Part shown: positions 23,453 through 37,424 of the stretch, piece by piece
How the letters are laid out: every line of letters begins with the position of its first letter
Position numbering within the stretch: position 1 is the stretch's first letter
NCBI GenBank assembly: GCA_965218975.1
Contig: OZ244717.1
Span: forward strand, 1,472,001 to 1,536,000
Direction of reading: 5' to 3'
Source: Candidatus Oxydemutatoraceae bacterium
GTDB lineage: Bacteria; Pseudomonadota; Gammaproteobacteria; Poriferisulfidales; Oxydemutatoraceae
Length of the DNA stretch: 64,000 nt
Program-made: the position numbers and the translations under genes
The notes under the pieces: generated by a model
Databases searched by the model: none
Seen by the model: the letters and a program-made list of their open reading frames with translations, nothing else
What the model was told of the DNA's origin: nothing

Positions 23453-24433
23453 TTATTTCAACAAATTGATTATTGCAGCACGTTCTTCTTGTAGTTCTTT
23501 TTCACTAATTTTTAGCATTTCCTGAGAATAAGTATCTAGTGTTAAGTTAGAGACAGTTTGATAGGCGTTTCGTAACGTTGTGACCGGGTATGAAAAAACA
23601 ATATCGGAATCGATACCATAACTGCCGTCGGACAGGATACCCATACTAGTCCAATCATTTGCACGGGTGCCGTTACGCAAGAGCTTCACATGGTCAATAA
23701 TCGCATTGGCAGCAGATGCTGCCGATGATTTTCCGCGTGCTTCGATTACTTGCACTCCACGTTGTTGAACATGTGGAACGAATATCTCGCTTCGCCAATT
23801 ATCCTCAAGCAATTCAATTACCGGACGGTCGTTAACTCTGCAATGTTGTATGTCAGGAAATTGAGTTGCCGAGTGATTGCCCCAAACGGTAAGCTGACGT
23901 ACTGCATTAGTACTACACTTTAAATGCTTTGCCAGTATCGATATTGCGCGATTATGATCAAGGCGCAGTAAGCAAGAAAATGATGTTGGCGGCAAATCTT
24001 TTGCCGCTTTGATTGCAACTAAAGTATTGGTATTGGCTGGGTTTCCAACAATAACGACACGCACATCGCGCGAAGCGCTTTCATTTAAAGCACACCCTTG
24101 ATATTGGAATATTTTGCTATTGATACGTAACAAATCTTTGCGTTCCATTCCTTGGCTACGTGGTTTTGCTCCAATCAGAAGTGCGTAATCAACATCTTGG
24201 AATCCTCGTGCCGGATCTAGGGTATAGCTCATCTTATGCAGATTTTGAAACGCACAGTCTTCCAGCTCCATCATTACTCCTGCAATAGCTTTCTCGGAGC
24301 TTTTTACTTCTACGAAACGAAGTTCAACAGATTGGTTGGGACCAAACATATCCCCCGCGGCAATACGAAATGCCAGAGCATAACCTACATTACCGGCCGA
24401 ACCGGTAATCGCAACTTTAACGGGGTTTTTCAT
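23453..24433 (-). CDS. mdh: Malate dehydrogenase (type 2)
   Basis: VAITGSAGNVG, MELEDCAF, VGNPANTN, RLDHNRA, WGNHS. Confidence 0.95.
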   Translation of the reverse strand: MKNPVKVAITGSAGNVGYALAFRIAAGDMFGPNQSVELRFVEVKSSEKAIAGVMMELEDCAFQNLHKMSYTLDPARGFQDVDYALLIGAKPRSQGMERKDLLRINSKIFQYQGCALNESASRDVRVVIVGNPANTNTLVAIKAAKDLPPTSFSCLLRLDHNRAISILAKHLKCSTNAVRQLTVWGNHSATQFPDIQHCRVNDRPVIELLEDNWRSEIFVPHVQQRGVQVIEARGKSSAASAANAIIDHVKLLRNGTRANDWTSMGILSDGSYGIDSDIVFSYPVTTLRNAYQTVSNLTLDTYSQEMLKISEKELQEERAAIINLLK

Positions 24434-24459
24434 TATGAGCTTCCTATTATGAGCTTCCT
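24432..24459. repeat. Perfect 14-bp tandem duplication covering the mdh RBS
   Basis: ATTATGAGCTTCCT twice (24432-24445, 24446-24459); the minus strand reads AGGAAGCTCATAAT. Confidence 0.9.
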
Positions 24460-24754
24460 GTTGAAACCGAACTATATAACTTTTGTTACATTAAGTGCCT
24501 TATTGTACTTCCATCAACTGACTTTTAGCATGTCGGAATTTACGGTTTGGATATTACCTTGCCAGTGCAATTGATTAAGTTTGTGCTAGTGGAGTAAATC
24601 AGCGTGACTTGGCTAATACAAAATTAGTTTATCATATTGATAAAACGATTGTACGATGCCACTCTAAATGGGATTTTTGAAGGGCTTCGGAGGAAGCGTT
24701 CGGCAGTAACATTCGGGTCGATGCTTTCTGTCCGTTGCCGGCATGAGGACGGTG

Positions 24755-24808
24755 CAGGGTGAGACGCGCCCGGAAAGCTGAGCATTCGCCAACAAACACA
24801 AAACGGTT
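24755..24808 (+). repeat. Hairpin-rich non-coding element, copy A (short, internally deleted)
   Basis: CAGGGTGAGACGCGCCCGGAAA joined to GCTGAGCATTCGCCAACAAACACAAAACGGTT. Confidence 0.8.
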
Positions 24809-25012
24809 CCATAACCGATCATTGAATGCTTCCATATCGGTAAATAGCAGGTTTTCCGCATGATCGATACAATCCTCCTGGACGGTACGGTTGAAGCGCT
24901 TGATGTGCGCATTCATTTTTGGACACTTGGGATAGGTCAGCCACTGCTCAATCACAGGTGATTCCCGGATGAGCCGGGCAAACTGTCCTTGAAACTCACT
25001 ACCGCCGTCCGT

Positions 25013-25198
25013 CAGGGTGAGACGCGCCCGGAAAACCGACTGGTTTTCAGCGGCGAACGACCCGACAAGGATGTCGGGGCTGGCGCTCATTGACAAAACC
25101 AAGTCTCGTCATGGACGACAGGCACTTTGCCGACAATCCGGCAGCAAACACAAAATGGTTTCATCAGCTCAAAGACTTTACTGCTGCCGAAATTCTGC
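25013..25198 (+). repeat. Hairpin-rich non-coding element (MITE-like), copy B
   Basis: Starts CAGGGTGAGACGCGCCCGG; hairpins at 25031-48, 25061-78, 25106-18 and 25128-43; homologous to copies A, C and D. Confidence 0.85.
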
Positions 25199-25502
25199 TA
25201 GGCGCAGGAATGCGGCTGCGTTGCGGCTGTTACAGCGGTTGGTTGCCACTGCTATTGCCATTCGGGTATAGACATCAATGGCCGTTAAGACGTAGCGGCG
25301 CACTCTGTGCTGATCACGCACAATCGTATCCAGGGCGATGCAATGCCCCGGGTACTGTGCTTTGAAGTGTTTCGGCTTGCGTGCCTTGCAACGGCGCTTA
25401 AACGGTCGTTTTGTTTGTCCTTTGGCATTCAGCCGCTGCGGAATACAGCGCATTTTATCCGGTGCATCCGCGATCAGGCGCGCAATCGTGCGGACGCTCG
25501 GG

Positions 25503-25656
25503 CAGGGTGAGACGCGCCCGGAAAACCGATTTTCAGCGGCGAACGACCCGACAAGGACGTCAAGGCTGGGGTTCATTCGCAGAACCAAGTTTCGTCACGG
25601 ACGGCAGGCACTTTGCCGACAATCTGGCAACAAGCGCAAAACGGTTTCGTGCTGAA
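25503..25656 (+). repeat. Hairpin-rich non-coding element, copy C
   Basis: Same start as copy B, diverged body, truncated after ACGGTTTC. Confidence 0.85.
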
Positions 25657-25984
25657 TCGGTTGCGGCCAGATCCGCTGGCGCCTCTTACGCGGCGCTTTG
25701 CTGCGATCATGTAAGGCGCTGAGGCCAGTGCAGCGATAACGCCGGCGCCAGCGGTACAAAGTACTGCGACCGATCTTGAATGCGTTCGGGAGTTACAACC
25801 CTCCCAAAATGAGGGCATCATATTTCTGTTGAGCCGTTGTGTTCATAATAGTCTTTATTTTTGAAGCAAAATTGGCTATTTTATAGAAACCTTTGATGCG
25901 GTGGCCGATGTGCTGATATTGCATATCGGTCACTTTTTTGAGTCGTGCCGTGAATCCCACATGTATCTGGCACTGTACACATTG

Positions 25985-26005
25985 TGTACGTGTCCAATAC
26001 ATTTG
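25985..26005 (+). mobile_element. Isolated IS481-type terminal repeat (subfamily B)
   Basis: TGTACGTGTCCAATACATTTG; near-identical to 34587-34605 and similar to the reverse complement of the end at 35949. Confidence 0.65.
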
Positions 26006-26222
26006 ATGGTTAAACTCACCGATATCTTCAAGCGATGCTTTTTTCCAAGAAGAGGAGATAAATTCTTCCATAAAAAATTCAGAACGTATTGACATCGCGC
26101 ATGGCATCTTAATCTCTTGAATATGGTATATTATTAGCATTTTAAAAATTGAAGTCGGGAAGTTTAGCTAGTTAATATACAAATAGTTTATTCCCGCATT
26201 TTAATACGGTTATTCAAAAGCA

Positions 26223-27266
26223 ATGTCTGATTTTGGACATTTAATGGTTTCAATCGCGTCACTGAGTCTCAGCCAGAGCGAGAAAAAGCGGCTACGCAAT
26301 CCCGCAGTCGGCGGTGTCATATTGTTTGTACGTAATTACAAAGATAAGATGCAGCTAGCTCAATTAATTTCTGAGATAAAAAGTATTAATGAGACATTGA
26401 TTATTGCAGTTGATCATGAAGGAGGAATAGTTCAGCGCTTAAAAAATTGGGAATTTACATATATACCCGCAGCTGAAAAATATGGCCTTTACTACGATGA
26501 TGCTTCCAATGAAGCTTGCCAGCTCGCCGAAGCAACGGGTGTGCTGGCAGGTAGTGAATTAAAATCGGTTGGTATCGATTGCGGGTTTACTCCGGTTCTT
26601 GATTTAAGTAACTCTAAAAGCAAAGTGATTGGAAGCCGCGCATATCATTCCAATACGGAAGCGGTGGCAATGATCGCCGGTTCTTTTATACGCGGTCTGC
26701 GCCGTAGCGGAATTATAAGTGTCGGTAAACATTATCCCGGGCATGGTTCGGTAGAGGGTGATACACATACTGATTGTGTTATTGACCCGCGGCCTATTTC
26801 AGAAATTTATGCTTCGGATATCTTACCGTATCGCCGATTGATTCAGCAGGATTTGCTCGATGCGATAATGATGGCTCATGTAATTTATCCGGCATTTGAT
26901 TCTGTTCCGGCAAGTCTTTCAGCAAAATGGATGAAGCAAAGTTTGCGCGAAGATTTAAAATTTAACGGTACTATATTTAGCGATGATGTGAGTATGGCCG
27001 GTATTGGCGAATCATCATTGTCAGCATGTAAGATGCTTGAGGCAGGTTGCGATATGATTATTGTTTGCCATAATGAATCACTAATTGAAAAACTAATTCA
27101 AGAGATGGCTAACTATCCACTCAAACAACACCGTAGAAAATTTCAAGAACGTTGGTTAACAAGGCAGAGCAACATAGCGCAAATTAAAACCGGTCAAAGC
27201 GAGAGTCCTGATAAGCTTATTCAAACGAAAAGGAAATTATCTCAATTAGATCAAAGGTATAGCTAG
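26223..27266 (+). CDS. nagZ: Beta-N-acetylhexosaminidase
   Basis: GGVILF.RN, DHEGG.VQR, KHYPGHG...DTH, SDD.SM. Confidence 0.95.
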   Translation: MSDFGHLMVSIASLSLSQSEKKRLRNPAVGGVILFVRNYKDKMQLAQLISEIKSINETLIIAVDHEGGIVQRLKNWEFTYIPAAEKYGLYYDDASNEACQLAEATGVLAGSELKSVGIDCGFTPVLDLSNSKSKVIGSRAYHSNTEAVAMIAGSFIRGLRRSGIISVGKHYPGHGSVEGDTHTDCVIDPRPISEIYASDILPYRRLIQQDLLDAIMMAHVIYPAFDSVPASLSAKWMKQSLREDLKFNGTIFSDDVSMAGIGESSLSACKMLEAGCDMIIVCHNESLIEKLIQEMANYPLKQHRRKFQERWLTRQSNIAQIKTGQSESPDKLIQTKRKLSQLDQRYS

Positions 27267-27275
27267 ATTCGTTAA

Positions 27276-28379
27276 ATGTTTCAATCAATACTTAACTTTT
27301 TCACCGCACCGCTATCCGATTCTGCTTGGTGGTTATGGCTCAAGCTCTTTGCCCTGGTTTTAACTATCATTATTGCTGGCGTTATCGTTAAATTTCTTGT
27401 AACAAAGCTTGTTAAACTTAGTGAACGTAGCGATACGCGCTGGGATAATACCTTTTTAATCAGCATTTACCAACCGTTGACCGTACTTATTTGGGTAGTT
27501 GGCATCACTTATGCGGCGGAATTCACTTGGCAAGATTTAACTGCCACTGTTGAGAATGTAATTCCGATTATTCGTAAGCTTGGATTTATTTTCTGTATAG
27601 CATGGTTTGCATTGCGCTTTTTGCGTAACAGCGAAGCGGTAATCATAGAAAAGTACGCAAACAAACCTGACAAAGCGGGGCTAGATGAATTTGGAATTCG
27701 TGCCGTTAATAAAATTTTCCGTATCTCCATAGTTATTACAACTATATTGATTGCATTTAGTACAATGGGGTATAGCATTTCCGGGATTCTTGCATTTGGC
27801 GGAATCGGAGGTATTGCAATCGGTTTTGCCGCTAAGGACTTGTTATCTAATTTTTTTGGCGGCCTGATGATTTACCTTGATCGTCCATTTATGGAAGGTG
27901 ACTGGATTCGGTCACCCGACCGAGAAATTGAAGGCATTGTTGAATATATCGGTTGGCGACAAACGCGGATTCGTACATTTGAACGTAGACCGATTTACGT
28001 TCCCAATTCAATTTTTGCCCAGATCACCGTAGAGAATCCTTCGCGCATGGAAAACCGAAGGTTTCGTGAGACGATAGGCGTACGCTATGATGATCTTACA
28101 AAGGTCAAGCTTATCGTTGAAGAAATCAAACAAATGTTGATCGATCATCACCGGATTGACGATGAAAAATTGCTAATCGTCAGTCTTGATAAGTTTGATG
28201 CTTCTAGTGTCAATATTTTGGTATATACGTACACTAAAGAAACCCAGGGCACTCACTTTTATAACCTAAAGCAGGGAATCCTATTAAATATTGCAGAAAT
28301 TATCGAGCGCCATGGAGCTGAAATTGCTTTTCCGACAACAACTTTACACATTGCATCACAAGTTACAGATCAGCAATAG
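27276..28379 (+). CDS. Small-conductance mechanosensitive channel (MscS/YnaI-like)
   Basis: GGIGGIAIGFAAKD..NFFGG, GDWI, EG.VE.IGWR.T, IAFPT. Confidence 0.92.
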   Translation: MFQSILNFFTAPLSDSAWWLWLKLFALVLTIIIAGVIVKFLVTKLVKLSERSDTRWDNTFLISIYQPLTVLIWVVGITYAAEFTWQDLTATVENVIPIIRKLGFIFCIAWFALRFLRNSEAVIIEKYANKPDKAGLDEFGIRAVNKIFRISIVITTILIAFSTMGYSISGILAFGGIGGIAIGFAAKDLLSNFFGGLMIYLDRPFMEGDWIRSPDREIEGIVEYIGWRQTRIRTFERRPIYVPNSIFAQITVENPSRMENRRFRETIGVRYDDLTKVKLIVEEIKQMLIDHHRIDDEKLLIVSLDKFDASSVNILVYTYTKETQGTHFYNLKQGILLNIAEIIERHGAEIAFPTTTLHIASQVTDQQ

Positions 28380-28465
28380 CGTTTATTTGCCAAGAGGGTA
28401 TTGTCTTAGAAAGAATGCGCTGACCTCCTGTTTCTGTGATGTGGGAATTGCCGACGCGGGTTATA

Positions 28466-28519
28466 TTGCAGTATCCGTCAATTGATTATTAGTCACATCT
28501 GCGAATAACCAATATTCAT
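28466..28519 (-). pseudogene. Possible relic 5' end of a serine resolvase
   Basis: With two 1-nt shifts it reads MNIGY-SQM-(S)TNNQLTD-LQ, resembling MxIGYARVSTxDQxxDLQ. Confidence 0.3.
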
Positions 28520-28673
28520 AAAAAAGCCTTGATCATTATTGATAAAAGTTACTTTTAATCTCTTCCATCCCTCTGCCGGAACAGGAAAAAAAACTGCAAT
28601 TTTCTCGCCAAACATCCATACAGAAATATTGAAAATTAAACGATATAATGAAGTGTATCCATAATGGATATAT

Positions 28674-28749
<76 letters not shown>

Positions 28750-28777
28750 ACATAACTTCCTAGGCCATCTAAGGACT

Positions 28778-29395
28778 TGTACGATGCCACCCTAAATGGG
28801 ATTCTTAAAGGGCTTCGGGGGAAGCGTTCGGCAAGCAACATTCGGATCGGTGCTTTCTGTCCATTGCCGGCATGAGGGCGGTGCAGGTTATATCAGGTTA
28901 AATACTCCCATAACCGGTCATTGAATGCTTCCGTATCGGCGAATAGCAGGTCTTCTGTATGATCGATACAATCTTCTTGGTGCGCGTTCATTTTCGGACA
29001 CTTGGGATAGGCCAGCCACTGCTCAATCGCGGGTGATTCCCGGATGAGCCGGGCAAACTGTCCTTGAAACTCACTACCGCCGTCCGTCAGGATATATTTT
29101 ACCGGTTGCGGCCAGATCCGCTGGCGCCTCTTACGCGGCGCTTTGCTGCGATCATGCAAGGCGCTGAGGCCAGTGTACTGCGACCGACCTTGAATGCGTT
29201 CGGGAGTTACAACCCTCCCAAAATAATAGGGCATCATATTTCTGTTGAGCCATTGTGTTCATAATAGCCTCTATTTTTGAAGCAAAATTGGCTATTTTAT
29301 AGAAACCTTTGATGCGGTGGCCGATGTGCTGATATTGCATATCGGTTACCTTTTTGAGTCGTGCCGTGAATCCCACATGTATCTGGCGCTGTAGC
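28778..29395 (-). mobile_element. IS481-family subfamily A, copy 2; internally deleted (about 620 bp)
   Basis: Same TGTACGATGCCA end and a degenerate other end; collinear with copy 1 but IWPQPV is fused directly to KYILTDGGSEF. Confidence 0.88.
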
Positions 29396-29763
29396 TTTGG
29401 GAGTAAAGAACAGCTTAAAACCTGAATCTCTACCAGAGAATGCTGATAGTTCGTTTCGCATGTCTGAGTTGGATCCAGATAAGGCAGCAAATTTACAGGT
29501 GCCAGGTGAATCCATACCAGAGGTTGATGACTTGGATGTTGAGTCAGAGGTTAATGAGGGTCGGCGATAGAATTGAAACGACTGATTCTTTTATTCAAAT
29601 TTTGGAGGAAGAGGGTAAGCCTATGAGTGCCCAAGAATTAAAACACCGCTTATCTGAAATCAAGGGAGTTTCAGAAAACATGCAGATACACGGAAATGAA
29701 CGTTTGATCGCAGTTGGCCCAAACTTATGGGGGCTAAGTGATTGGGGGCTATTCCTAGAATGA
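29396..29763 (+). pseudogene. 3' fragment of island cargo gene with a winged-HTH-like C-terminus
   Basis: No 5' end (cut by the IS) and a frame break; ends ILEEEGKPMSAQEL...GPNLWGLSDW. Confidence 0.5.
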
Positions 29764-30000
29764 TTGTTTTATTGCATCAATACCTAAGCTTGTTCTGAAT
29801 CGGTTAGAGGAGGTTTAGCTGGGAACACAGTAAAATGATGAATCAAAGCTAGTTGTCAAAAGCTGGTTGACATGCAATGTACGGAGCAACTCAACTGATA
29901 TAGTTATGAATAGTTTTCGGTAGTGCCTAGCTCCCCCAATCCTTAAATTATGATTAATGATTGTGAGAGGGCAGAAGCGATCGGTTTTAGAAAAGAAGAC

Positions 30001-30777
30001 TTATAAAGTCTGCGATGGTTCTTTCATGGGAGTCATTGAACGGGTATCGTCGTTACGCACGATCGGAAAAAATAGTCCGGAATCTTCATCAAATAAATGC
30101 AGGTTCAACGTATCATTTTCCTCAACACTGCTTGTTAGATAGGCCAATCCGTACATTTCTCCATTTAAATAGTTACAAGACGACAAAAATAAATGAATCC
30201 GATAGGCATTCACTTTAGAGTTAACCGGTTGAATGCGACCCTCATAGGCACAACCGGTCGTATCTGCGCCCTGTACCGTACCGGAGCGATCAATGTCAAA
30301 TTTTATGATAGTGAAACCATGGTATAGAATCCAACTACCTCTCACCAAATCAAACGTTGCCGGCTTTTCATAGATTTCTTTCTGATAACTTAATTTAAGA
30401 TTACCCTCATCACTGGCTTCCAATGTTTCAAACCGTGCCTCTATCTCGGAATGGCTTTTGAATATTCCGCTTAGATCAACCTCGTCAAACTTGCTTTTGT
30501 TTTTTATATACATTACTAAGTTTGACTGATAAACTTCTTGCTTATTTGAAACGCTTCCATGGTACACTACGTTAGCATCTTGACTGATAGCTACCGCTTT
30601 GCCGTCTATGTATAAGGCAGTAAAGTCAAAATTTCCACGACCGTTGATGTCAAAACTTCCCGACCAAATACCATTCACTGTATAAGAGGGAGGAGTTTTA
30701 ACGGCAAATACTATAGCGGTAACTATCACCACCAATATCAGCGAGATAAGAATACCGACTAGAATTTTTTTGTTCAA
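30001..30777 (-). CDS. Hypothetical membrane-anchored, beta-rich protein
   Basis: 258-aa ORF with one N-terminal TM helix; no family recognised. Confidence 0.75.
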   Translation of the reverse strand: MNKKILVGILISLILVVIVTAIVFAVKTPPSYTVNGIWSGSFDINGRGNFDFTALYIDGKAVAISQDANVVYHGSVSNKQEVYQSNLVMYIKNKSKFDEVDLSGIFKSHSEIEARFETLEASDEGNLKLSYQKEIYEKPATFDLVRGSWILYHGFTIIKFDIDRSGTVQGADTTGCAYEGRIQPVNSKVNAYRIHLFLSSCNYLNGEMYGLAYLTSSVEENDTLNLHLFDEDSGLFFPIVRNDDTRSMTPMKEPSQTL

Positions 30778-30883
30778 TTTTTTTAAGTTTGCTTTAAGGT
30801 GTTTAATTATAAAGGAGAATATTATAATGAGGTCAGTGTTATAAATTCAAAGAAATATAATTTAAAATACACCACTAAACTAA

Positions 30884-32089
30884 ATGCTTGATCACATAAA
30901 TCGCAAGTTTGAATTTTACCAGCTGTTATTACAAGTACTGTTTGTGGGCATGACAGTAGGATTATTCCGGACAGTCATTCCTGCACTTGCTGAAAGCGAG
31001 TTTAACGTTCCTGCCGATTCATTTCTACTGCTTGGAACATTTGTGATTGTATTCGGCATCATAAAAGCCGCCTTAAATTTCGTTGCCGGAAGATTATCGG
31101 ATACATTGGGACGACGAAAGATTCTGCTAAGTGGCTGGATCATCGCTCTCCCGATTCCATATTTGTTGGCGTATGCTTCCAATTGGTCTTGGGTCCTCGT
31201 GGCAACAGTCCTGTTGGGAGTCAATCAGGGGTTATGCTGGTCAATGTCGCAAACAATGAAACTTGATTTATCGGTACCAGGGCGCTATGGCATTGCGGTT
31301 GGACTCAATGAAACTTTCGGTTATTGCGGCGTGGCTTTGACCGGATATCTCAGTACCGTCTTAACCAGCGAGTTTGGCCTACGCACAACGATGCTGTCGC
31401 TTGGTTTCGGAACGATTGGTTTGGCGCTATTGCTTAGCGCACTATTTTGCAATGAGACTCGACCGCTTAACACCTTAAATAGAAAAAAACCTAAGCTTGG
31501 TTTGCGGCTTTTTTGTGAAATTAGTTGGAATAACCGTGCGACAATGGCATTATGCCTTGCCGGTTTGGTTGAGAAATTCGTCGATACTTTGATTTGGCTC
31601 ATATATCCGGTATTCCTTTACCAAAACAATATTTCCTTACCTATGATTGGCGTTATTACAGGCGTCTATGGTTTAGTTTGGGGAGTGATGCAGTTGTTGA
31701 CCGGGACTTATTCGGACCGCATTGGTCGCAAGCGATTAATTATTGGTGGAATGCTGCTATGCGCCGTGGGATGTATGGTTACGTTATGGAATTCAAACAC
31801 TATTTGGTGGATTGCCAATGCAGCATTGATAGGTTTGGGTATGGCAATGCTATACCCAACTTTGAGTGCGGCAATCAATGACCAAGTTTCGGAAATGCAA
31901 CGAGGCACAGTGATGGGAATTTATCGATTCTGGCGTGATTTCGGATATTTTATCGGCGCAATTGCTTTGAGTGGGATCAGCGTACTTGCGCAAGCGCAGG
32001 AAGCAGCTTTTTATCTGACTAGCGTGTGTATGTTTGCCAGCGCGTTGTTATTAGTATTTTTAACTCCGGAAACAAGTGCCGAAAAATAA
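30884..32089 (+). CDS. MFS transporter
   Basis: GRLSDTLGRR and GTYSDRIGRK motif A; about 12 TM. Confidence 0.92.
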   Translation: MLDHINRKFEFYQLLLQVLFVGMTVGLFRTVIPALAESEFNVPADSFLLLGTFVIVFGIIKAALNFVAGRLSDTLGRRKILLSGWIIALPIPYLLAYASNWSWVLVATVLLGVNQGLCWSMSQTMKLDLSVPGRYGIAVGLNETFGYCGVALTGYLSTVLTSEFGLRTTMLSLGFGTIGLALLLSALFCNETRPLNTLNRKKPKLGLRLFCEISWNNRATMALCLAGLVEKFVDTLIWLIYPVFLYQNNISLPMIGVITGVYGLVWGVMQLLTGTYSDRIGRKRLIIGGMLLCAVGCMVTLWNSNTIWWIANAALIGLGMAMLYPTLSAAINDQVSEMQRGTVMGIYRFWRDFGYFIGAIALSGISVLAQAQEAAFYLTSVCMFASALLLVFLTPETSAEK

Positions 32090-32092
32090 AGC

Positions 32093-32557
32093 ATGATCAG
32101 CGCGGCGCATCAATTGACTCGGTGCTTATTTCTGTCGGCAGTTGTTGTGCTTATTGGTGGATGTAGCGAACGAGAGATTGTAAGCACTGCTACGATTGGT
32201 GATCGCCAATTTATTATTGAGACAGTTTGTAGTGAGATGGTGCGAGCGCAAGGTTTGTCAAAAAGAACTTCACTACCGGAAGGCAAAGGGATGCTATTCA
32301 TTTTTAATTCCATTGATTATCATGGAATTTGGATGAGAGATATGAGCTTCCCAATTGATATTATGTGGATTAATGAACTTAGATCTATTGTTCACATTGA
32401 AGAAAAGGTGTTACCAGACACTTACCCAAAGATTTTCAAGCCGCCAACACCGGCATTGTATGTCCTGGAAGTTCCGGCAGGTACAAGTGCCGGAATTAGT
32501 TTAGGCACTATGGTAGATTTAAAAAATATTTCACCCGCACAAGTGCCATGCCGTTGA
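32093..32557 (+). CDS. DUF192 family protein (possible lipoprotein)
   Basis: GL..R....GMLF.F, WMRDM.FPIDI, YVLEVPAG; lipobox-like IGGC. Confidence 0.88.
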   Translation: MISAAHQLTRCLFLSAVVVLIGGCSEREIVSTATIGDRQFIIETVCSEMVRAQGLSKRTSLPEGKGMLFIFNSIDYHGIWMRDMSFPIDIMWINELRSIVHIEEKVLPDTYPKIFKPPTPALYVLEVPAGTSAGISLGTMVDLKNISPAQVPCR

Positions 32558-32729
32558 TACTTACGGTATTTCAGCTTAAATGCAAAATCACGACTTAATA
32601 AGATAATATAGTTTCCAAGGATAACTGCTTAAATAAGCAAATAAAATAATCGAAACGATAACCTCAACGATATCGATATCATAACGAAGATAGAAGGAGG
32701 CTTGCTTTTAGGAATGTGTAACAGCCGGT

Positions 32730-32758
32730 TTGACGCCATTAAGTAATAAATGGATAAT
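32730..32758 (+). promoter_or_regulatory. Sigma70 promoter of tRNA-Glu
   Basis: TTGACG-N17-GATAAT followed by a GC-rich discriminator GCGCCG. Confidence 0.75.
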
Positions 32759-32770
32759 GCGCCGTTTCCC

Positions 32771-32843
32771 GTCCCCATCGTCTAGAGGCCTAGGACATCG
32801 CCCTTTCACGGCGGCAACGGGGGTTCGAATCCCCCTGGGGACG
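32771..32843 (+). tRNA. tRNA-Glu(TTC), CCA not encoded
   Basis: GTCCCCATCGTCTAGAGGCCTAGGAC...CTTTCAC...GGTTCGAATCCCCCTGGGGACG. Confidence 0.96.
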
Positions 32844-32845
32844 CA

Positions 32846-33619
32846 TCAGCGACGTAATCCGACCCCTTTATGCATCAAATAAAGGCATAAAGTTGCTAAT
32901 AAAATAATGAACAATAAAATAATTAGAGTGGATAGTAATGGTGAAATATCCCCAACACCGAGCATGCCGTGCCGGAATCCGTTCACCATATAAAGAATCG
33001 GGTTAAATAGAGAAATTTGTTGCCAAAACTCGGGGAGCAAACGGATAGAATAAAAAATTCCCCCTAAATAGGTAAGTGGGGTCAAAACAAAGGTGGGTAT
33101 GATTGAAATATCATCAAAGCTTTTGGCGTACATCCCGTTGATAAAACCTGCCATTGAAAAGAGGGTAGCGGTAAGCACCAAAATCAAAAATGCCAGCCCT
33201 AAATTGACAAGCGGCAACGTTGTAAACAATAACGAAATTAAAAATACGACACTGCTCGCTATGATCCCCCGTGCAATCCCACCAATCACAAAACCGATCA
33301 AAACCAAGTAGTTTGGCATCGGAGAAATTAATAATTCCTCAATATGTCGCTGAAATTTACTGCTGTAAAAAGAGGAAGCGACATTGGCATAAGAATTTGT
33401 AATGACAACCATTAAAATTAAACCCGGCACGATATAATCAATATAGCGAAAGTTATTGATATCGTTCAATTGCGCACCGATGAATTGGCCAAAAATGAAA
33501 AAGTACAATGCAGTAGTAATCGCCGGCGGCAGAATAGTCTGAACCCAAATACGCATAAAACGTTGAACCTCTTTTCGAGCTAAAGTAGTGAGAGCAATGA
33601 ATTGTTCAGTGGGTGGCAT
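32846..33619 (-). CDS. yadH: ABC-2 permease YadH
   Basis: RFMRIWVQT.LPP, YIVPGLI.M, PLTYLGG.FYS. Confidence 0.9.
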   Translation of the reverse strand: MPPTEQFIALTTLARKEVQRFMRIWVQTILPPAITTALYFFIFGQFIGAQLNDINNFRYIDYIVPGLILMVVITNSYANVASSFYSSKFQRHIEELLISPMPNYLVLIGFVIGGIARGIIASSVVFLISLLFTTLPLVNLGLAFLILVLTATLFSMAGFINGMYAKSFDDISIIPTFVLTPLTYLGGIFYSIRLLPEFWQQISLFNPILYMVNGFRHGMLGVGDISPLLSTLIILLFIILLATLCLYLMHKGVGLRR

Positions 33620-33628
33620 GATGTTTTA

Positions 33629-34552
33629 TTATGAAACAATTTGTAGAAAAAGTTCTTCGAGGCGATTGGTTTTATTTCTGATCCCAAGTATAGGAATATT
33701 AAGCGCCTCTAGCTGAGCAAATATTTGAGCAAGATCTCTTTGACCGTCGACAGTAACGTCAAGTGTCATTTCATCGCTTAAGTGTGTTATAGCGAACTGT
33801 AGCGAAGGAGGTGTTTTAAGCGGAGATTTTAAATATAACGTGTACGTTTCGCTGTTAAGCTTACTTAGTAATTTCCGCATTGTCGTGTCTTCAATAATTC
33901 TTCCTTGGTCAATAATCGCAATATTACGACACCAATTTTCCGCTTCTTCTAAATAATGAGTAGTCAAAATAATCGTAGTTCCCTGCCGATTAAGTTGATT
34001 CATGAATTTCCAAATCAGGCGTCTGACTTCAATATCGACACCGGCAGTCGGTTCATCAAGAATGAGTAGACGCGGGTGATGCATCAGAGCGCGTGTGATC
34101 ATCAAACGGCGTTTCATTCCTCCGGATAGTTGACGCATCTCAACATCGCGCACGCCCCACAATGCCAATTCTTTTAAATATTGCTCGGCACGCGCTTTGG
34201 CGACTTTCCTTGGCAAACCGTAATAACCCGCCTGATTCAGAACGACGTCAATTGCTCGCTCAAACTGATTGAAGTTAAATTCCTGAGGTACTAAACCGAT
34301 TAGCACTTTTGCTTGAGAGGCAAAATTTTTAATGTCGTATCCATAAATTTTGACTTGTCCTGAAGTCGGATTGACCAATGAAGTTATAATGCCGATAGCC
34401 GTTGATTTTCCGGCACCATTTGGACCTAGTAATGCAAAGAAATCGCCATCGCGTACAATTAAATCAATACCTTTTAACGCATGGAAACGATTGGCATAAA
34501 TTTTATGAAGCTTGTTTATTGCTAAGGCTATTGTGCCGGACATTGCGTGCAT
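33629..34552 (-). CDS. yadG: ABC ATP-binding protein YadG
   Basis: GPNGAGKS, LSGGMKRR, DEPTAGVD, NRLEELF; the start may be 34543. Confidence 0.9.
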   Translation of the reverse strand: MHAMSGTIALAINKLHKIYANRFHALKGIDLIVRDGDFFALLGPNGAGKSTAIGIITSLVNPTSGQVKIYGYDIKNFASQAKVLIGLVPQEFNFNQFERAIDVVLNQAGYYGLPRKVAKARAEQYLKELALWGVRDVEMRQLSGGMKRRLMITRALMHHPRLLILDEPTAGVDIEVRRLIWKFMNQLNRQGTTIILTTHYLEEAENWCRNIAIIDQGRIIEDTTMRKLLSKLNSETYTLYLKSPLKTPPSLQFAITHLSDEMTLDVTVDGQRDLAQIFAQLEALNIPILGIRNKTNRLEELFLQIVS

Positions 34553-34586
34553 ATTTTACCGGATGAGTGTCATATCTGGTAGGGCG

Positions 34587-34609
34587 TGTACATGTCCAAT
34601 ACATTCTGG
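34587..34609 (+). mobile_element. Isolated IS481-type terminal repeat (subfamily B)
   Basis: TGTACATGTCCAATACATT; 15/19 identical to the reverse complement of the end at 35949. Confidence 0.6.
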
Positions 34610-34632
34610 GCCTTGTAGCAGAGCGCTTCCGA

Positions 34633-34660
34633 TTGACATTTATCCATAAAAAACTATCAT
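34633..34660 (+). promoter_or_regulatory. Candidate sigma70 promoter for the FAH gene
   Basis: TTGACA-N16-TATCAT. Confidence 0.5.
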
Positions 34661-34762
34661 AATGCAGGTTTTTATCTCAGACTCTCTGCATCAATTCAAT
34701 CATATTTTTAATGACTCCACATTACCACAAGGGATGTGTGCCAATTTGGAGAATTTCACAAG

Positions 34763-35386
34763 ATGACGACTCAGTGGATTCGCTATGAATATCAATCGCA
34801 AGCAGGCTTTGGCACCTTTGATAAAGGATTGATTCAGCCTCATTCCGGGGATATGTTCGGCGTGTCAAAATTTGCCGATGTGCCTATATTAATAAGTGAT
34901 GTTCGACAAAAAACACCCACTAAACCCTCGAAGATGATCGCTTTGTGGAATAATTATCACGCACTTGCTAATGAAAAGAGATTAACTAAACCGAAGACGC
35001 CGCTTTATTTGATTAAATCTCCAAATTGTTATCTTGCTAACGAAGAAGTAATTCGGCATCCATCGCACTATCAAGGAAAGGTGTTTTACGAAGGAGAAAT
35101 TGGCATCGTGATTGGAAAAACTGCTAAAAATTTAGTCACTATCGAACAAGCTGCCGAACATATTTTCGGATATATATGCGTCAATGATGTTACTGCTTTC
35201 GATCTATTAAAAGAAGAAGACAATTTTGATCAATGGACGCGTGCTAAAGGATTTGATACTTTCGGCGTTTTCGGGCCGGTTATTGAAACGGAGCTTGATT
35301 TTGGAACATGCGAAGTTACGACAAGTATTAACGATAAAATAGTCCAACGCTATCCGATCGGAATAGGTGTGTTAAAAAATCGTTAA
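34763..35386 (+). pseudogene. Fumarylacetoacetate-hydrolase family gene with an internal deletion
   Basis: NY..H, YEGEIG, NDVTA, RAKGFDTF..GP are present, but QRYP runs straight into IGIGVLKN, losing the TL.PGD.I.TGT segment. Confidence 0.7.
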
Positions 35387-35422
35387 CTATTTAGTTCGTA
35401 TAATATATATTATGTTAAATTT

Positions 35423-35613
35423 CAGGTTGCGTCGCCCGCACCGGGCAGAATTTCGGCAGCTTTGGCGAATCTCGGCAGCAGTAAAGTCTTTGAGCTGATG
35501 AAACCGTTTTGTGTTTGTTGGTGAATGCTCAGCAAAGTGCCTGTCGTCCATGACGAGACTTGGTTCTGTCAATGAGCGCCAGCCCCGACGTCCTTGTCGG
35601 GTCGTTCGCCGCT
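35423..35613 (-). repeat. Hairpin-rich non-coding element, copy D (carries the opposite end)
   Basis: Its reverse complement matches the body of copy B; the outer end CAGGTTGCGTCGCCCG resembles CAGGGTGAGACGCGCCCG. Confidence 0.85.
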
Positions 35614-35949
35614 ACGTGTTCACCTTCATTGACCCGCGCGCGTTGCGTTCGCGTGGGCTTCCACGTTTATGAAGGACTTCGAGACCGAGTTGAAACAGTG
35701 CCGGATCACCCTCTGGTGGACCTATCCGAAGTCGCCAAAGCTGAACGCGCACGTTGAGCGCTTCAACCGCACCTTGCAGGAATCACACGAGGATCTTCTG
35801 TTCACTGATGTGGCCTGCTTTAACCGGGAATTGGCGCAATGGCTGGTGTTTTGCAACACCCAACGCCCCATCATTCACTGGGGTTGCAATCCCCGATACA
35901 ATCGCTCCTGACTCACCACCCGGAGTGCCAAATGTTATGGACCTATACA
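35607..35949 (+). mobile_element. IS481-family subfamily B remnant (3' part of transposase)
   Basis: RYVFTFIDP, YPKSPKLNAHVERFNRT, and C-terminal CQMLWTYT running into the terminal repeat ...GGACCTATACA. Confidence 0.85.
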
Positions 35950-36085
35950 ATGGCTTGCTTTTATTACTTTAGGCGGTTATTGTTATGGTAAGGTCTTCCT
36001 ATGAGGAGCGACATCGTATCGCATTTCACGAAGCCTTAGCCTTTAAAATAATTGAGTATTAAACATTTTCTACTAGGAGAATACA

Positions 36086-36349
36086 ATGAAACTGAAACCA
36101 CTAGCGCTATTTTTTGTCATTTTTGCTGCTGCATTGATTTCAGGTTGCGGAGGCGGTGCCGCTATGCACATGGAAATGGATGAGAAAATGAATGAGGTCA
36201 GAGCGACTGCAGAAGAAGCTCTGAGAACTGCGAATACAGCCGACTATAATGCCTCAGTTGCCAAACAATTGGCGGATGAAGCTATGACTATGATGCAGAT
36301 GCGGATGATGAAAGGCAAGATGAAAAATAAGATGGATTACCACAAGTAA
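36086..36349 (+). CDS. Lpp/OprI-like alanine-zipper lipoprotein, Met-rich
   Basis: AGGAG SD, lipobox ISGC, Ala-rich coiled coil, C-terminal YHK; convergent with an L,D-transpeptidase. Confidence 0.8.
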   Translation: MKLKPLALFFVIFAAALISGCGGGAAMHMEMDEKMNEVRATAEEALRTANTADYNASVAKQLADEAMTMMQMRMMKGKMKNKMDYHK

Positions 36350-36375
36350 TAATCAAGTAATTTGCACTTTAAAAT

Positions 36376-36404
36376 AAGGGGCTTACACAAAAAGCCCCTT
36401 TTAT
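36376..36404. terminator. Intrinsic terminator, probably bidirectional
   Basis: AAGGGGCTT-loop-AAGCCCCTT followed by T residues, between convergent genes. Confidence 0.8.
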
Positions 36405-36437
36405 CTTTGCTTCCGTTTCGTCGCAAAAATCCATTGA

Positions 36438-37424
36438 CTAAAAAAGCGACGTTATCTTAGCAGCTGAATTTTTTATTTTTGTTGCGGTAGTAGGCATCGC
36501 TACTTCTGCCCATTGGGTATTATTGGCATCCAAATTAACTTCTTTGGGAATCCCCTCTTTCTGTTGAATCATTATGCCGATTAAATCCCAATTTAGTGAT
36601 TTATCGCTTTGAACTGCCGCTTCAATTATTTTTTGGATAGATTGAGTCAATGCATCCGCATAATCACGGTCCGACATGGTTATTGCCGTGTTAGCTTCAA
36701 AGTAAATGCTATTCCCTTCTACTGTAGATTTGTACGGTTCATGATAAATTTTTACCAGTGTTTTTCGTGTGATATCATCAAATAGCAGAGCAATATCATT
36801 AGGGCGTAAGCGAATGCAGCCGTGCGTCACTTTCATCCCGATTCCGTATGGTTTATTAGTGCCATGTATAAAGTAGCCGGGTAAATTTAATTTTAATGCA
36901 AATTTTCCGAGCGGGTTATTGGACCCTGGAAGAACGACTGCAGGCAGCGGATCGCCATTTAACTGGTGTTCGTGTCTGATCTCCGGTGTCGGGTACCAGT
37001 TCGGATTGATAATTTTATCCTCCACTGTAACTCTACCTACAGGCGTTTGCCATTCTTCCCGCCCGATACTAATAGGGAAAGTCATCACTTTATTTTGATC
37101 ATAGAAATAATATAGACGATATTCGGATAGGTTGATATGAATACCCTCACTTTTGTCTTCCGGCAAAATAAACCGCGTAGGTAAAACGATTTGGCTTCCT
37201 TCTGCCGGTAACCAAGGGTCAACTCCCGGATTGGCACGGATGAGTTCCTCGTATCCTAAATCAAATTGATGAGCAATTTTGATGAATGTATCCTCGCGAT
37301 GCGCACGAATAGTTTTAACTTCGCCAATAACATTGTGAGCTTTATTGAGTGTATAAGTGTCCGAAAACGCTGTAAAATGCGTCCCTAACAGCAAAAACAA
37401 TGTTATTTTTAGAGCCGTTCTCAT
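36438..37424 (-). CDS. L,D-transpeptidase (ErfK/YcfS family, LysM-like N-terminus)
   Basis: ANPGVDPWLP, NPLG, IHGTN...GMKVTHGCIRL catalytic motif. Confidence 0.95.
   Translation of the reverse strand: MRTALKITLFLLLGTHFTAFSDTYTLNKAHNVIGEVKTIRAHREDTFIKIAHQFDLGYEELIRANPGVDPWLPAEGSQIVLPTRFILPEDKSEGIHINLSEYRLYYFYDQNKVMTFPISIGREEWQTPVGRVTVEDKIINPNWYPTPEIRHEHQLNGDPLPAVVLPGSNNPLGKFALKLNLPGYFIHGTNKPYGIGMKVTHGCIRLRPNDIALLFDDITRKTLVKIYHEPYKSTVEGNSIYFEANTAITMSDRDYADALTQSIQKIIEAAVQSDKSLNWDLIGIMIQQKEGIPKEVNLDANNTQWAEVAMPTTATKIKNSAAKITSLF

Follow-up and report, generated by a model that had tools for sequence, protein, structure and literature searches.

A hairpin-forming repeat with one fixed end in the IS481 copies of a Candidatus Oxydemutatoraceae genome, and its relatives in other bacteria

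Small non-coding repeats are common in bacteria, and the mobility and function of most of them are not understood. BOX and BIME elements are modular and hairpin-rich, carry a variable number of middle units, have expanded in a genome-specific manner and lie between genes. The RUP repeat of Streptococcus pneumoniae is described, in the available part of its source, as a small non-coding repeat found in insertion sequence (IS) elements of several families, where it inactivates transposase genes (PMC2229807). The betaproteobacterial repeat element (BRE, Hot et al. 2011) is presented in the accessible text as about 90 bp long, G+C-rich and arranged in tandem with little or no spacer and in variable copy number, mostly intergenic but sometimes overlapping the ends of open reading frames (ORFs) by a few bases, patchy in distribution and with no function known (PMC3110155). 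For the one-ended transposition of IS91 and IS801, the portions at hand of the two sources describe a fixed origin end that bears subterminal palindromes and abuts a target tetranucleotide, and a termination end lying at related ones; adjacent DNA can be captured, the target is not duplicated, and one IS801 fragment interrupts another IS (PMC3189936, PMC13181058). In the genome of Candidatus Oxydemutatoraceae bacterium (contig OZ244717.1; a single contig of 2.081 Mb, 47.7% G+C, 99.4% complete), a stretch of 64,000 nucleotides (nt) at positions 1472001 to 1536000, referred to here as the window, was found to contain a hairpin-forming repeat of about 200 bases, which we name E. In this host genome E has a fixed 5' end and a ragged 3' end and touches IS481-family sequence at nearly all of its loci, and structured relatives of it occur in other genomes.

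The full E unit is 197 nt long, is numbered from the start of GTGAGAC as position 1 and terminates in GGCGCAGG. A genome-wide BLAST search, a check that an initial annotation made from the sequence alone had proposed, was run with this unit and returned 351 segments with E-values down to 1e-93, excluding chance. Of these segments, 302 start at E position 1, and their ends scatter over more than 30 positions (98, 106/107, 114, 123-127, 147/148, 179/180, 197). With a 21-mer of the E 5' end and up to four mismatches, 306 unit starts were counted in the 2.08-Mb genome, and a strict hairpin-1 pattern matched 214 times. After merging, E amounts to about 145-160 loci and 42-43 kb, or approximately 2% of the genome, with the longest arrays reaching 1585 bp. 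IS481 sequence lies within 60 bp of E on both sides at 119 of 145 loci, on one side at 19 and on neither at 7. The initial claim that E is found only fused to IS481 therefore stands for 138 of the 145 loci, which touch IS481-derived sequence, but not for the remaining 7, two of which still show IS ends and two of which belong to a Fic-like gene locus. Excluding E, IS481 sequence accounts for 3.1% of the genome, and no intact IS481 transposase is present, since the 118 fragments found score 90 bits at best against a cut-off of 224 (NF033577). E itself is not derived from IS481.

Within the window, E and the IS481 sequences joined to it are arranged as follows.

24650 to 25979, minus strand: IS481-family copy of subtype 1, with the transposase on the minus strand (rve and rve_3 matches, NF033577 fragments)
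24759 to 24812, plus strand: E copy A at IS site A, in which E 1-22 runs on into E ~117-148; GGTGCAGG stands before it, and 20 bp of the IS are replaced
25017 to 25208, plus strand: E copy B at IS site B (class B1), full length, with CGTCAGG before it and its end GGCGCAGG joined to AATGCGG
25507 to ~25648, plus strand: E copy C at IS site C, with GGGCAGG before it, cut short near E position 150, where it shares a TTTCA-type microhomology with the IS
28778 to 29395, minus strand: sister IS481 copy with sites A and B empty and an internal deletion between two CGGTTGC repeats
35423 to 35434, plus strand: 12-nt remnant of IS481 subtype 2 next to the 3' end of copy D, identical to the 12 nt found after E in other subtype-2 copies
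35435 to 35613, minus strand: E copy D, without E 1-32, joined to the IS via a shared AGCGGCG
35607 to 35949, plus strand: C-terminal part and end of IS481 subtype 2, with the transposase on the plus strand (rve_3 match; assigned by BLAST family)

Reading of the window together with a repeat finder bore out the four copies initially reported and refined their coordinates. Copies A, B and C split the subtype 1 element into four pieces, and each begins GTGAGACGCGCCCGGAAA immediately after CAGG in the window sequence, so that the shared start proposed for them, CAGG followed directly by GTGAGAC, was indeed seen. The right junction of copy A falls in a CAT microhomology common to E and the IS, and copy C has a 4-nt deletion in hairpin 1. 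Other details of the initial annotation had to be revised. The sister IS, which had been taken as uninterrupted, does have sites A and B empty, yet a deletion between its CGGTTGC repeats has removed about 300 bp. Copy D had been drawn from 35423, yet its first 12 nt (35423-35434) belong to IS481 subtype 2, which is cut off there against unique DNA; and its CGCCGCT junction, although present, is a secondary deletion between two AGCGGCG repeats. The full E 5' end is found in other copies of the same IS subtype, where ACGTAGCGGCGG is followed by GTGAGAC. An imperfect terminal inverted repeat of 11/15 reduces to a 5-bp GCGCC/GGCGC pairing.

The junctions were also checked against assembly chimeras. 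Independent assemblies of four public runs, which come from three studies, yield contigs over the region. One of these, 313 nt long and from a different study, runs across the junction on the right of copy A and that on the left of copy B; another, of 456 nt, does the same for the right end of copy B and the left end of copy C. As the IS is multicopy, either contig may derive from other IS copies, yet the junction types are thereby seen to exist outside this assembly.

Throughout the genome, E position 1 is the exact point of joining for no fewer than 12 different upstream contexts, almost all of which end in GG. The first units of arrays are preceded by GGTGCAGG at site A (~35-55 copies), CCGTCCGTCAGG at site B (~24-28) and CACTCGGGCAGG at site C (~12). 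Less frequent are GTTGCCGG, ACGTAGCGGCGG (subtype 2), CCGGCGCAGG (a fourth subtype), CCTATCGGCAGG (a third subtype, with E in the sense direction) and several places within the terminal segment of the IS; six E sites were found in four IS481 subtypes. The tetranucleotide before unit starts is CAGG, less often ATGG, CCGG, ACGG or CTGG, and full units themselves end in CAGG. Where one unit follows another, the preceding unit ends in GTC(T/G)CGTCATGG (98 nt, ~85 cases), GGACGA(G/C)CAGG (107 nt, ~28), AAAA(C/T)GG (~143 nt, ~10) or GGCGCAGG (197 nt, ~30).

The same boundaries were observed where arrays include DNA other than E. Upstream of the Fic-like gene (genome ~1034800-1035700), three 303-bp units stand in tandem, each starting from E position 1. 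Each unit comprises 83 nt of E and 220 bp of non-E DNA, namely 44 nt without an assigned source, the upstream region of the gene and the first 38 nt of the gene, and ends with GCGCAGG inside the Fic-like gene; the intact gene continues after the last unit. The gene thus has three extra copies of its own promoter region. In an IS at 1183300-1184740 there is an array of three units (L-[E148-M1]x3), each made of E(1-148) and the IS segment next to it and ending at that segment's own CAGG; an empty site B follows the array. Together, these two arrays indicate that the reiterated segment starts at the first base of E and stops at CAGG, irrespective of the DNA in between.

A small number of classes account for the right junctions, each of them, with its identical deletion, common to many IS copies (14-36). 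In class A, E148 is followed by AACCGG (24 copies, and 12 more with extra short repeats); in class B1, E197 is followed by AATGCGG (~14 copies); and in a further class, E114 is followed by C(A/G)GGTTGCGG (13 copies). Each class looks like a single event that was later inherited. Ancestral site A is kept in four IS copies and shows that 20 bp were replaced by E, and ancestral site B, kept in several copies, shows a replacement of 37 bp in class B1 and of ~11 bp in class B2. Site C and the subtype-2 site lost ~75-100 bp, as judged from a diverged IS copy and profile coordinates. No target-site duplication was found at any of the six IS sites in the host genome; target DNA was lost instead. The ragged far ends and the replaced target DNA described initially are therefore real. 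E is likewise, as had been argued, no ordinary cut-and-paste miniature inverted-repeat transposable element (MITE), for it has one fixed and one ragged end, no fixed-length duplication, no real terminal inverted repeats and a replaced target. The 3' raggedness beside IS sequence is secondary deletion at microhomologies, with junctions sitting in CAT, TTTCA and AGCGGCG; a simpler scheme offered at the outset, a CAGG-ended element followed by microhomology deletions, comes close to these 3' junctions. The terminal GGCGCAGG of E exactly matches the IS sequence that adjoins site B on the right and resembles the sequence right of site C. The 5' end of E differs in kind, being invariant across contexts and genomes and joining GG via 2-4 nt of shared G.

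Relatives of E were sought outside the host genome. An exact-pattern scan of genome contigs yielded three records, including Rhodobacter sp. SW2 (via the 21-mer); the other two, from Rhizobium, match in the 21-mer alone, which is probably fortuitous. Scans of this kind gave no records in metagenome contigs (two patterns) or viral contigs (one pattern). E was not found by BLAST in 40 relatives of the host, and the strict hairpin-1 pattern had no matches in 300 other genomes of the phylum or in 60 relatives of the Rhodobacter genome. In Rhodobacter sp. SW2, a repeat of ~100 nt occurs in ~20 intergenic copies; it is homologous to E positions 1-70, but its hairpin 1 has a longer distal stem and its hairpin 2 shows a compensatory change. 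The homologous part forms the middle of the Rhodobacter repeat, which is 100-125 nt in length, starts upstream of this part with a conserved CAAATATCCC and ends in a G/C-run hairpin. A covariance model built from nine E copies and five Rhodobacter copies (R1) matched in 15 of 150 other genomes of the class (E-value <=0.001), and a second model (R2) matched in 4 of 150 genomes of a phylum-wide sample (E-value <=0.0001), all in two families of the same class.

The family core consists of GTGAG, a CG-rich foot, a variable hairpin 1, CGNCGAACG, a hairpin 2 with an A-N-GGA-N loop, and GCUGG; in the R1 alignments, GGGGUGAG, CGNCGAACG and GCUGG are conserved around the two hairpins. The A-N-GGA-N loop is always on hairpin 2, and the stems differ by compensatory pairs. 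The stem covariation that the initial annotation had suggested checking proved strong in 26 model-aligned members: 93.4% of cells pair, compared to 24-52% with slid partners, both partners have changed in 13 of 19 pairs, and 0 of 500 shuffles reach the observed value. Searches against Rfam gave only transfer RNAs (tRNAs) in window 24000-36500 (E-value <=1), no match at the Rhizobium and Rhodobacter loci and none at seven loci with relatives (E-value <=0.5). A resemblance of the 5' motif to ERIC elements was rejected, as R1 finds nothing in E. coli K-12 (E-value <=0.1). For a possible resemblance to the ends of Tn3-family elements, the host genome holds no Tn3 transposase.

The contexts of the relatives were read at 21 loci from 14 other genomes, where their neighbours are housekeeping genes. 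At seven loci of six genomes, a tRNA piece ending in GG is followed by G(T/C)GAG and the element and then by a complete tRNA gene, which begins with the same piece as precedes the element. The duplicated piece ends at the D-loop GG (nt 1-18/19) or at the T-loop (nt 1-52), or else it repeats the last 16-17 nt in reverse complement. The tRNA piece and the element together can form tandem units, up to three in number, and one tRNA gene is occupied at both ends. One further locus has a flanking duplication of 35-90 nt. The relatives, unlike E in the host genome, show flanking target duplications of 16-90 bp. No tRNA-linked E copies were found by pattern in the host genome. The element also lies directly after xerD in four larger genomes of two families and after rimK in two, where the TGA of GGGTGAG is the stop codon of xerD or rimK; the xerD position reflects either conserved synteny or a recurrent target. 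A limited literature search found no description of E or of similar tRNA-loop-linked repeats.

In the host genome, the IS481 link of E is best explained by descent. Median pairwise identity at site A is 0.908 for E versus 0.92 for the IS flank (55 copies, 1485 pairs), and at site B it is 0.918 versus 0.91 (28 copies), showing that E and the IS are of similar age. A perfect 5-bp target duplication is kept in 5 of 28 complete IS copies, including an E-laden 1834-bp copy and a 663-bp copy of head-array-tail structure. Equal divergence and kept duplications together indicate that E and the IS multiplied together. Only IS481 subtypes flank E, and a RUP-like spread over several unrelated IS families was not seen. 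As to orientation, copies A to D are all antisense to the rve/rve_3 reading frames of their IS481, which had been taken as a constant feature; genome-wide, however, one junction class (three copies) is sense to the transposase, and the orientation is therefore not obligatory. The IS carries five CAGG on the strand antisense to the transposase and one on the sense strand, and this 5:1 asymmetry, rather than a strand rule of E, goes far to explain the antisense orientation. The E top strand is on the leading-strand template in 70 of 110 loci, without the lagging-strand-template bias of IS200/IS605/REP; the replication-strand bias of E is weak and tied to IS orientation.

We interpret E as the locally amplified representative of a wider, polar and non-autonomous family of small structured repeats that do not code for protein, a reading to which we give about an even chance. 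The fixed 5' end would then represent a site-specific nick or a defined-end intermediate that is handled one-endedly, by analogy with IS91/IS801, and the one-ended process acting on this end would now be orphan or supplied in trans. This statement concerns the behaviour of E and not membership of IS91, whose defining transposase was not found: the IS91 models PF04986 and NF033538 gave no match in the host genome, but they were silent in all 14 control genomes too. We infer the following order of events. E would have entered an IS481 early, probably at the site where GGCGCAGG is followed by AATGCGG, since the last 12 nt of E look like that IS flank. Several routes may then have led to ~300 units: hitch-hiking as the E-laden IS multiplied with a transposase acting in trans and since lost; recombination and gene conversion among ~90 IS copies; local duplications and deletions anchored at the E 5' end and ending at nearby CAGG-like sites, which would have put E at sites A, B and C and made the 98-, 107-, 143- and 197-nt units; and unequal crossing-over, by which arrays could have grown to 1.6 kb.

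A number of observations weigh against this interpretation. No clean insertion was found at any IS site, each E site having lost 11 to ~100 bp of target, and no copy was found in which the proposed first insertion still has an undamaged IS flank to its left and right. Target duplications are missing from 23 of 28 complete IS copies, indicating that the IS copies recombine, which can explain scattered empty states. All four filled and empty combinations of sites A and B exist (both filled in at least 21 copies, only A in 4, only B in 2, both empty in 1), and the empty states are dispersed over a tree of 36 IS segments, with a B-empty copy nested among B-filled ones (support 98/93). Simple descent thus cannot by itself account for the pattern, which calls for recombination or recurrent local events. 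The covariation alignment is model-fitted, which favours the structure, and in another genome one six-unit array of 101-nt units is phased inside hairpin 1 and not at GTGAG, so that arrays can arise by ordinary unequal crossing-over. Moreover, the searches for an enzyme gave no match in the host genome with Y1_Tnp (PF01797; control positive in 10 of 14 genomes), with RVT_1 (control positive in 3 of 14) or with IS110 DEDD and Tn3 DDE (controls worked), and PF01797 had no match in the Rhodobacter genome either. The HUH-type or RNA-templated chemistry suggested in the initial annotation was thus not borne out by any Y1 transposase, reverse transcriptase, IS110-type or Tn3-type gene. Nor was a long copy encoding a transposase, HUH nuclease or reverse transcriptase found in the host genome; the only place where diverged E arrays bracket genes (149030-153949) holds no transposase.

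Much of this record could have been left by a passive minisatellite, in which one accidental insertion was followed by host recombination, slippage and microhomology repair, with neither machinery nor a special 5' end. The lack of a detected enzyme (with the IS91 controls silent), the CAT, TTTCA and AGCGGCG microhomologies at 3' junctions, the equal age of E and the IS, the heavy recombination implied by duplications lost in 23 of 28 IS copies and the differently phased array in another genome are all consistent with such a history. We nevertheless consider it unlikely, because at least 12 upstream contexts all join at E position 1, units that capture non-E DNA still begin there and end at CAGG, tRNA genes of six other genomes show this boundary too, and no such duplications occur at other CAGG pairs inside the IS. 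The opposite view, raised initially, is that E is an IS-hunting hyperparasite that recognises IS481, inserts repeatedly and independently, and silences the copies. It could draw on the contact with IS481 at 138 of 145 loci when IS481 occupies only 3.1% of the genome, the six sites in four subtypes, the loss of every intact transposase (best 90 bits against 224 among 118 fragments), the polymorphism of site B among close IS relatives and the precedent of pneumococcal RUP, reported in IS elements in the available part of its source (PMC2229807). However, identical right junctions with identical target loss are shared by up to 36 copies, E is no younger than the IS and has travelled with kept 5-bp duplications, family members elsewhere lie outside IS elements, E is also present in the Fic-like gene, a sense-oriented class exists, and the 5:1 strand asymmetry of CAGG explains most of the orientation, which together render this view very unlikely.

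Two further explanations centre on RNA. CsrA/RsmA binding sites present GGA in a hairpin loop, and E might be a selected RNA module built around the GGA loop of hairpin 2, its arrays being accidental or real multi-site sponges; this would be compatible with mobility. The A-N-GGA-N loop is kept with compensatory stem changes in 26 members from more than 10 genomes, copies elsewhere lie in tRNA leaders and 3' untranslated regions with further GGA motifs, the element follows xerD in four genomes of two families, and a CsrA gene is present in the host (genome 1864162-1864317), for which a role here is a prediction. Against this, E matches no Rfam family, those of Csr/Rsm included (E-value <=1 for E, <=0.5 for seven relative loci), and in the host genome it lies inside dead IS copies. 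The G:U excess in its stems (109 versus 20 A:C) is confounded by a C-to-T excess at unpaired sites too, and a protein-bound DNA hairpin would show the same conservation; a selected RNA as the explanation thus appears distinctly improbable. Target deletions and duplications are both typical of target-primed reverse transcription, and the host genome and the other genomes show deletions and 16-90-bp duplications, respectively. Such RNA-templated insertion, in which the complementary strand would be the RNA, its 3' end …GTCTCAC would prime at a nick and incomplete copying would give the ragged end and the variable target loss or duplication, fits one fixed and one ragged end. It is nonetheless extremely unlikely, as no reverse transcriptase domain was found in the complete host genome (control positive in 3 of 14) and the element's neighbours elsewhere are housekeeping genes.

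The reading of E as a polar, non-autonomous repeat can tentatively be extended to the whole family, although we regard this extension as rather unlikely. The family would form a class of orphan one-ended micro-elements, for which a trans-acting activity nicks GG/GTGAG or makes a defined end there and joins it to GG sites, with tRNA D- and T-loops and Gly-TGA gene ends as preferred targets. An upstream copy of the target would be carried along, so that the tRNA or gene is regenerated, and the GGA hairpin may be a protein handle or a CsrA-type site. In the present genome, that of a symbiont, the element would have been trapped in an IS481 lineage and have helped to kill it.

Several features of E copies and of their surroundings were noted in addition. 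Across all E units, C-to-T changes on the E top strand exceed G-to-A changes per site, at paired and unpaired positions, which suggests a strand-biased mutation process acting on E. Some copies (genome 405371, 416512-416865 and 476822-476902) contain, in or beside hairpin 1, a palindromic insert of ~30 nt (…CACAGGCAGG), which may be a second small element. At genome 149030-153949, two inverted ends of IS481 subtype 2 are each followed inward by a diverged E array with a 152-nt period; the arrays bracket 3.2 kb with nucleotidyltransferase, HNH_2 nuclease and weak M78-peptidase genes and no transposase, a composite-transposon-like arrangement with defence- or toxin-antitoxin-like cargo. In the window, 20-nt ends of the third IS481 subtype, 19/20 identical, lie at 25985-26003 and 34586-34605, and one of them directly abuts the right end of the E-laden IS, indicating nested or abutting IS remnants. 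A tRNA gene at 28674-28746 (tRNA-Ala by eye) ends 32 nt short of the sister IS481 end at 28778. An ORF of the fumarylacetoacetate hydrolase family (34736-35386) matches profile positions 2-150 of 214 and stops 48 nt short of the E/IS remnant, as though the gene had been cut by the same deletion that truncated the IS.

With ~300 units, more than 12 junction classes and empty sites, E offers a rich natural record and shows a strict polarity rule. A seemingly genome-specific repeat is thereby tied to a covariation-supported family in at least two proteobacterial classes, located at tRNA loops and stop codons, and the question of what moves these elements becomes testable. The case is also a warning that an apparent IS-hunting parasite can arise from hitch-hiking and recombination alone.

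Compared with known systems, E resembles BRE in its arrays of 98-nt units, and its relatives do so in the array of 6 x 101 nt and in the overlap with stop codons, a comparison made by description only; the available text on BRE does not report it inside IS elements or at tRNA loops (PMC3110155). RUP, as far as its accessible source goes, has IS630-Spn1-like terminal inverted repeats, a TA target and a target duplication, all of them features that E, restricted to IS481 types, lacks. E also differs from a classical DDE-mobilised MITE in having only the 5-bp GCGCC/GGCGC pairing at its ends and no duplication. Like Csr/Rsm sponge RNAs, it is predicted to form several GGA hairpin loops in a host with a CsrA gene, but unlike the curated Csr/Rsm RNA families it has no match in Rfam. 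The modular, hairpin-rich and genome-specifically expanded design of BOX and BIME recurs in E, which, in contrast to these intergenic elements, lies inside one IS family; to our knowledge, a polar junction rule has not been described for BOX or BIME. With respect to IS91/IS801 as presented in the portions of the sources at hand, E differs in its CAGG-like tetranucleotide, instead of GTTC/CTTG, in the loss of target at its insertions and in the long target duplications of its relatives; no IS91-type transposase was matched in the host genome, though the search controls were silent. Nonetheless, as in the 'miniature sequences' of IS91/IS801 described there, E has neither target duplication nor terminal inverted repeats, its fixed end bears subterminal palindromes and abuts a tetranucleotide, its other end is variable and lies at a related tetranucleotide, and flanking DNA is captured.

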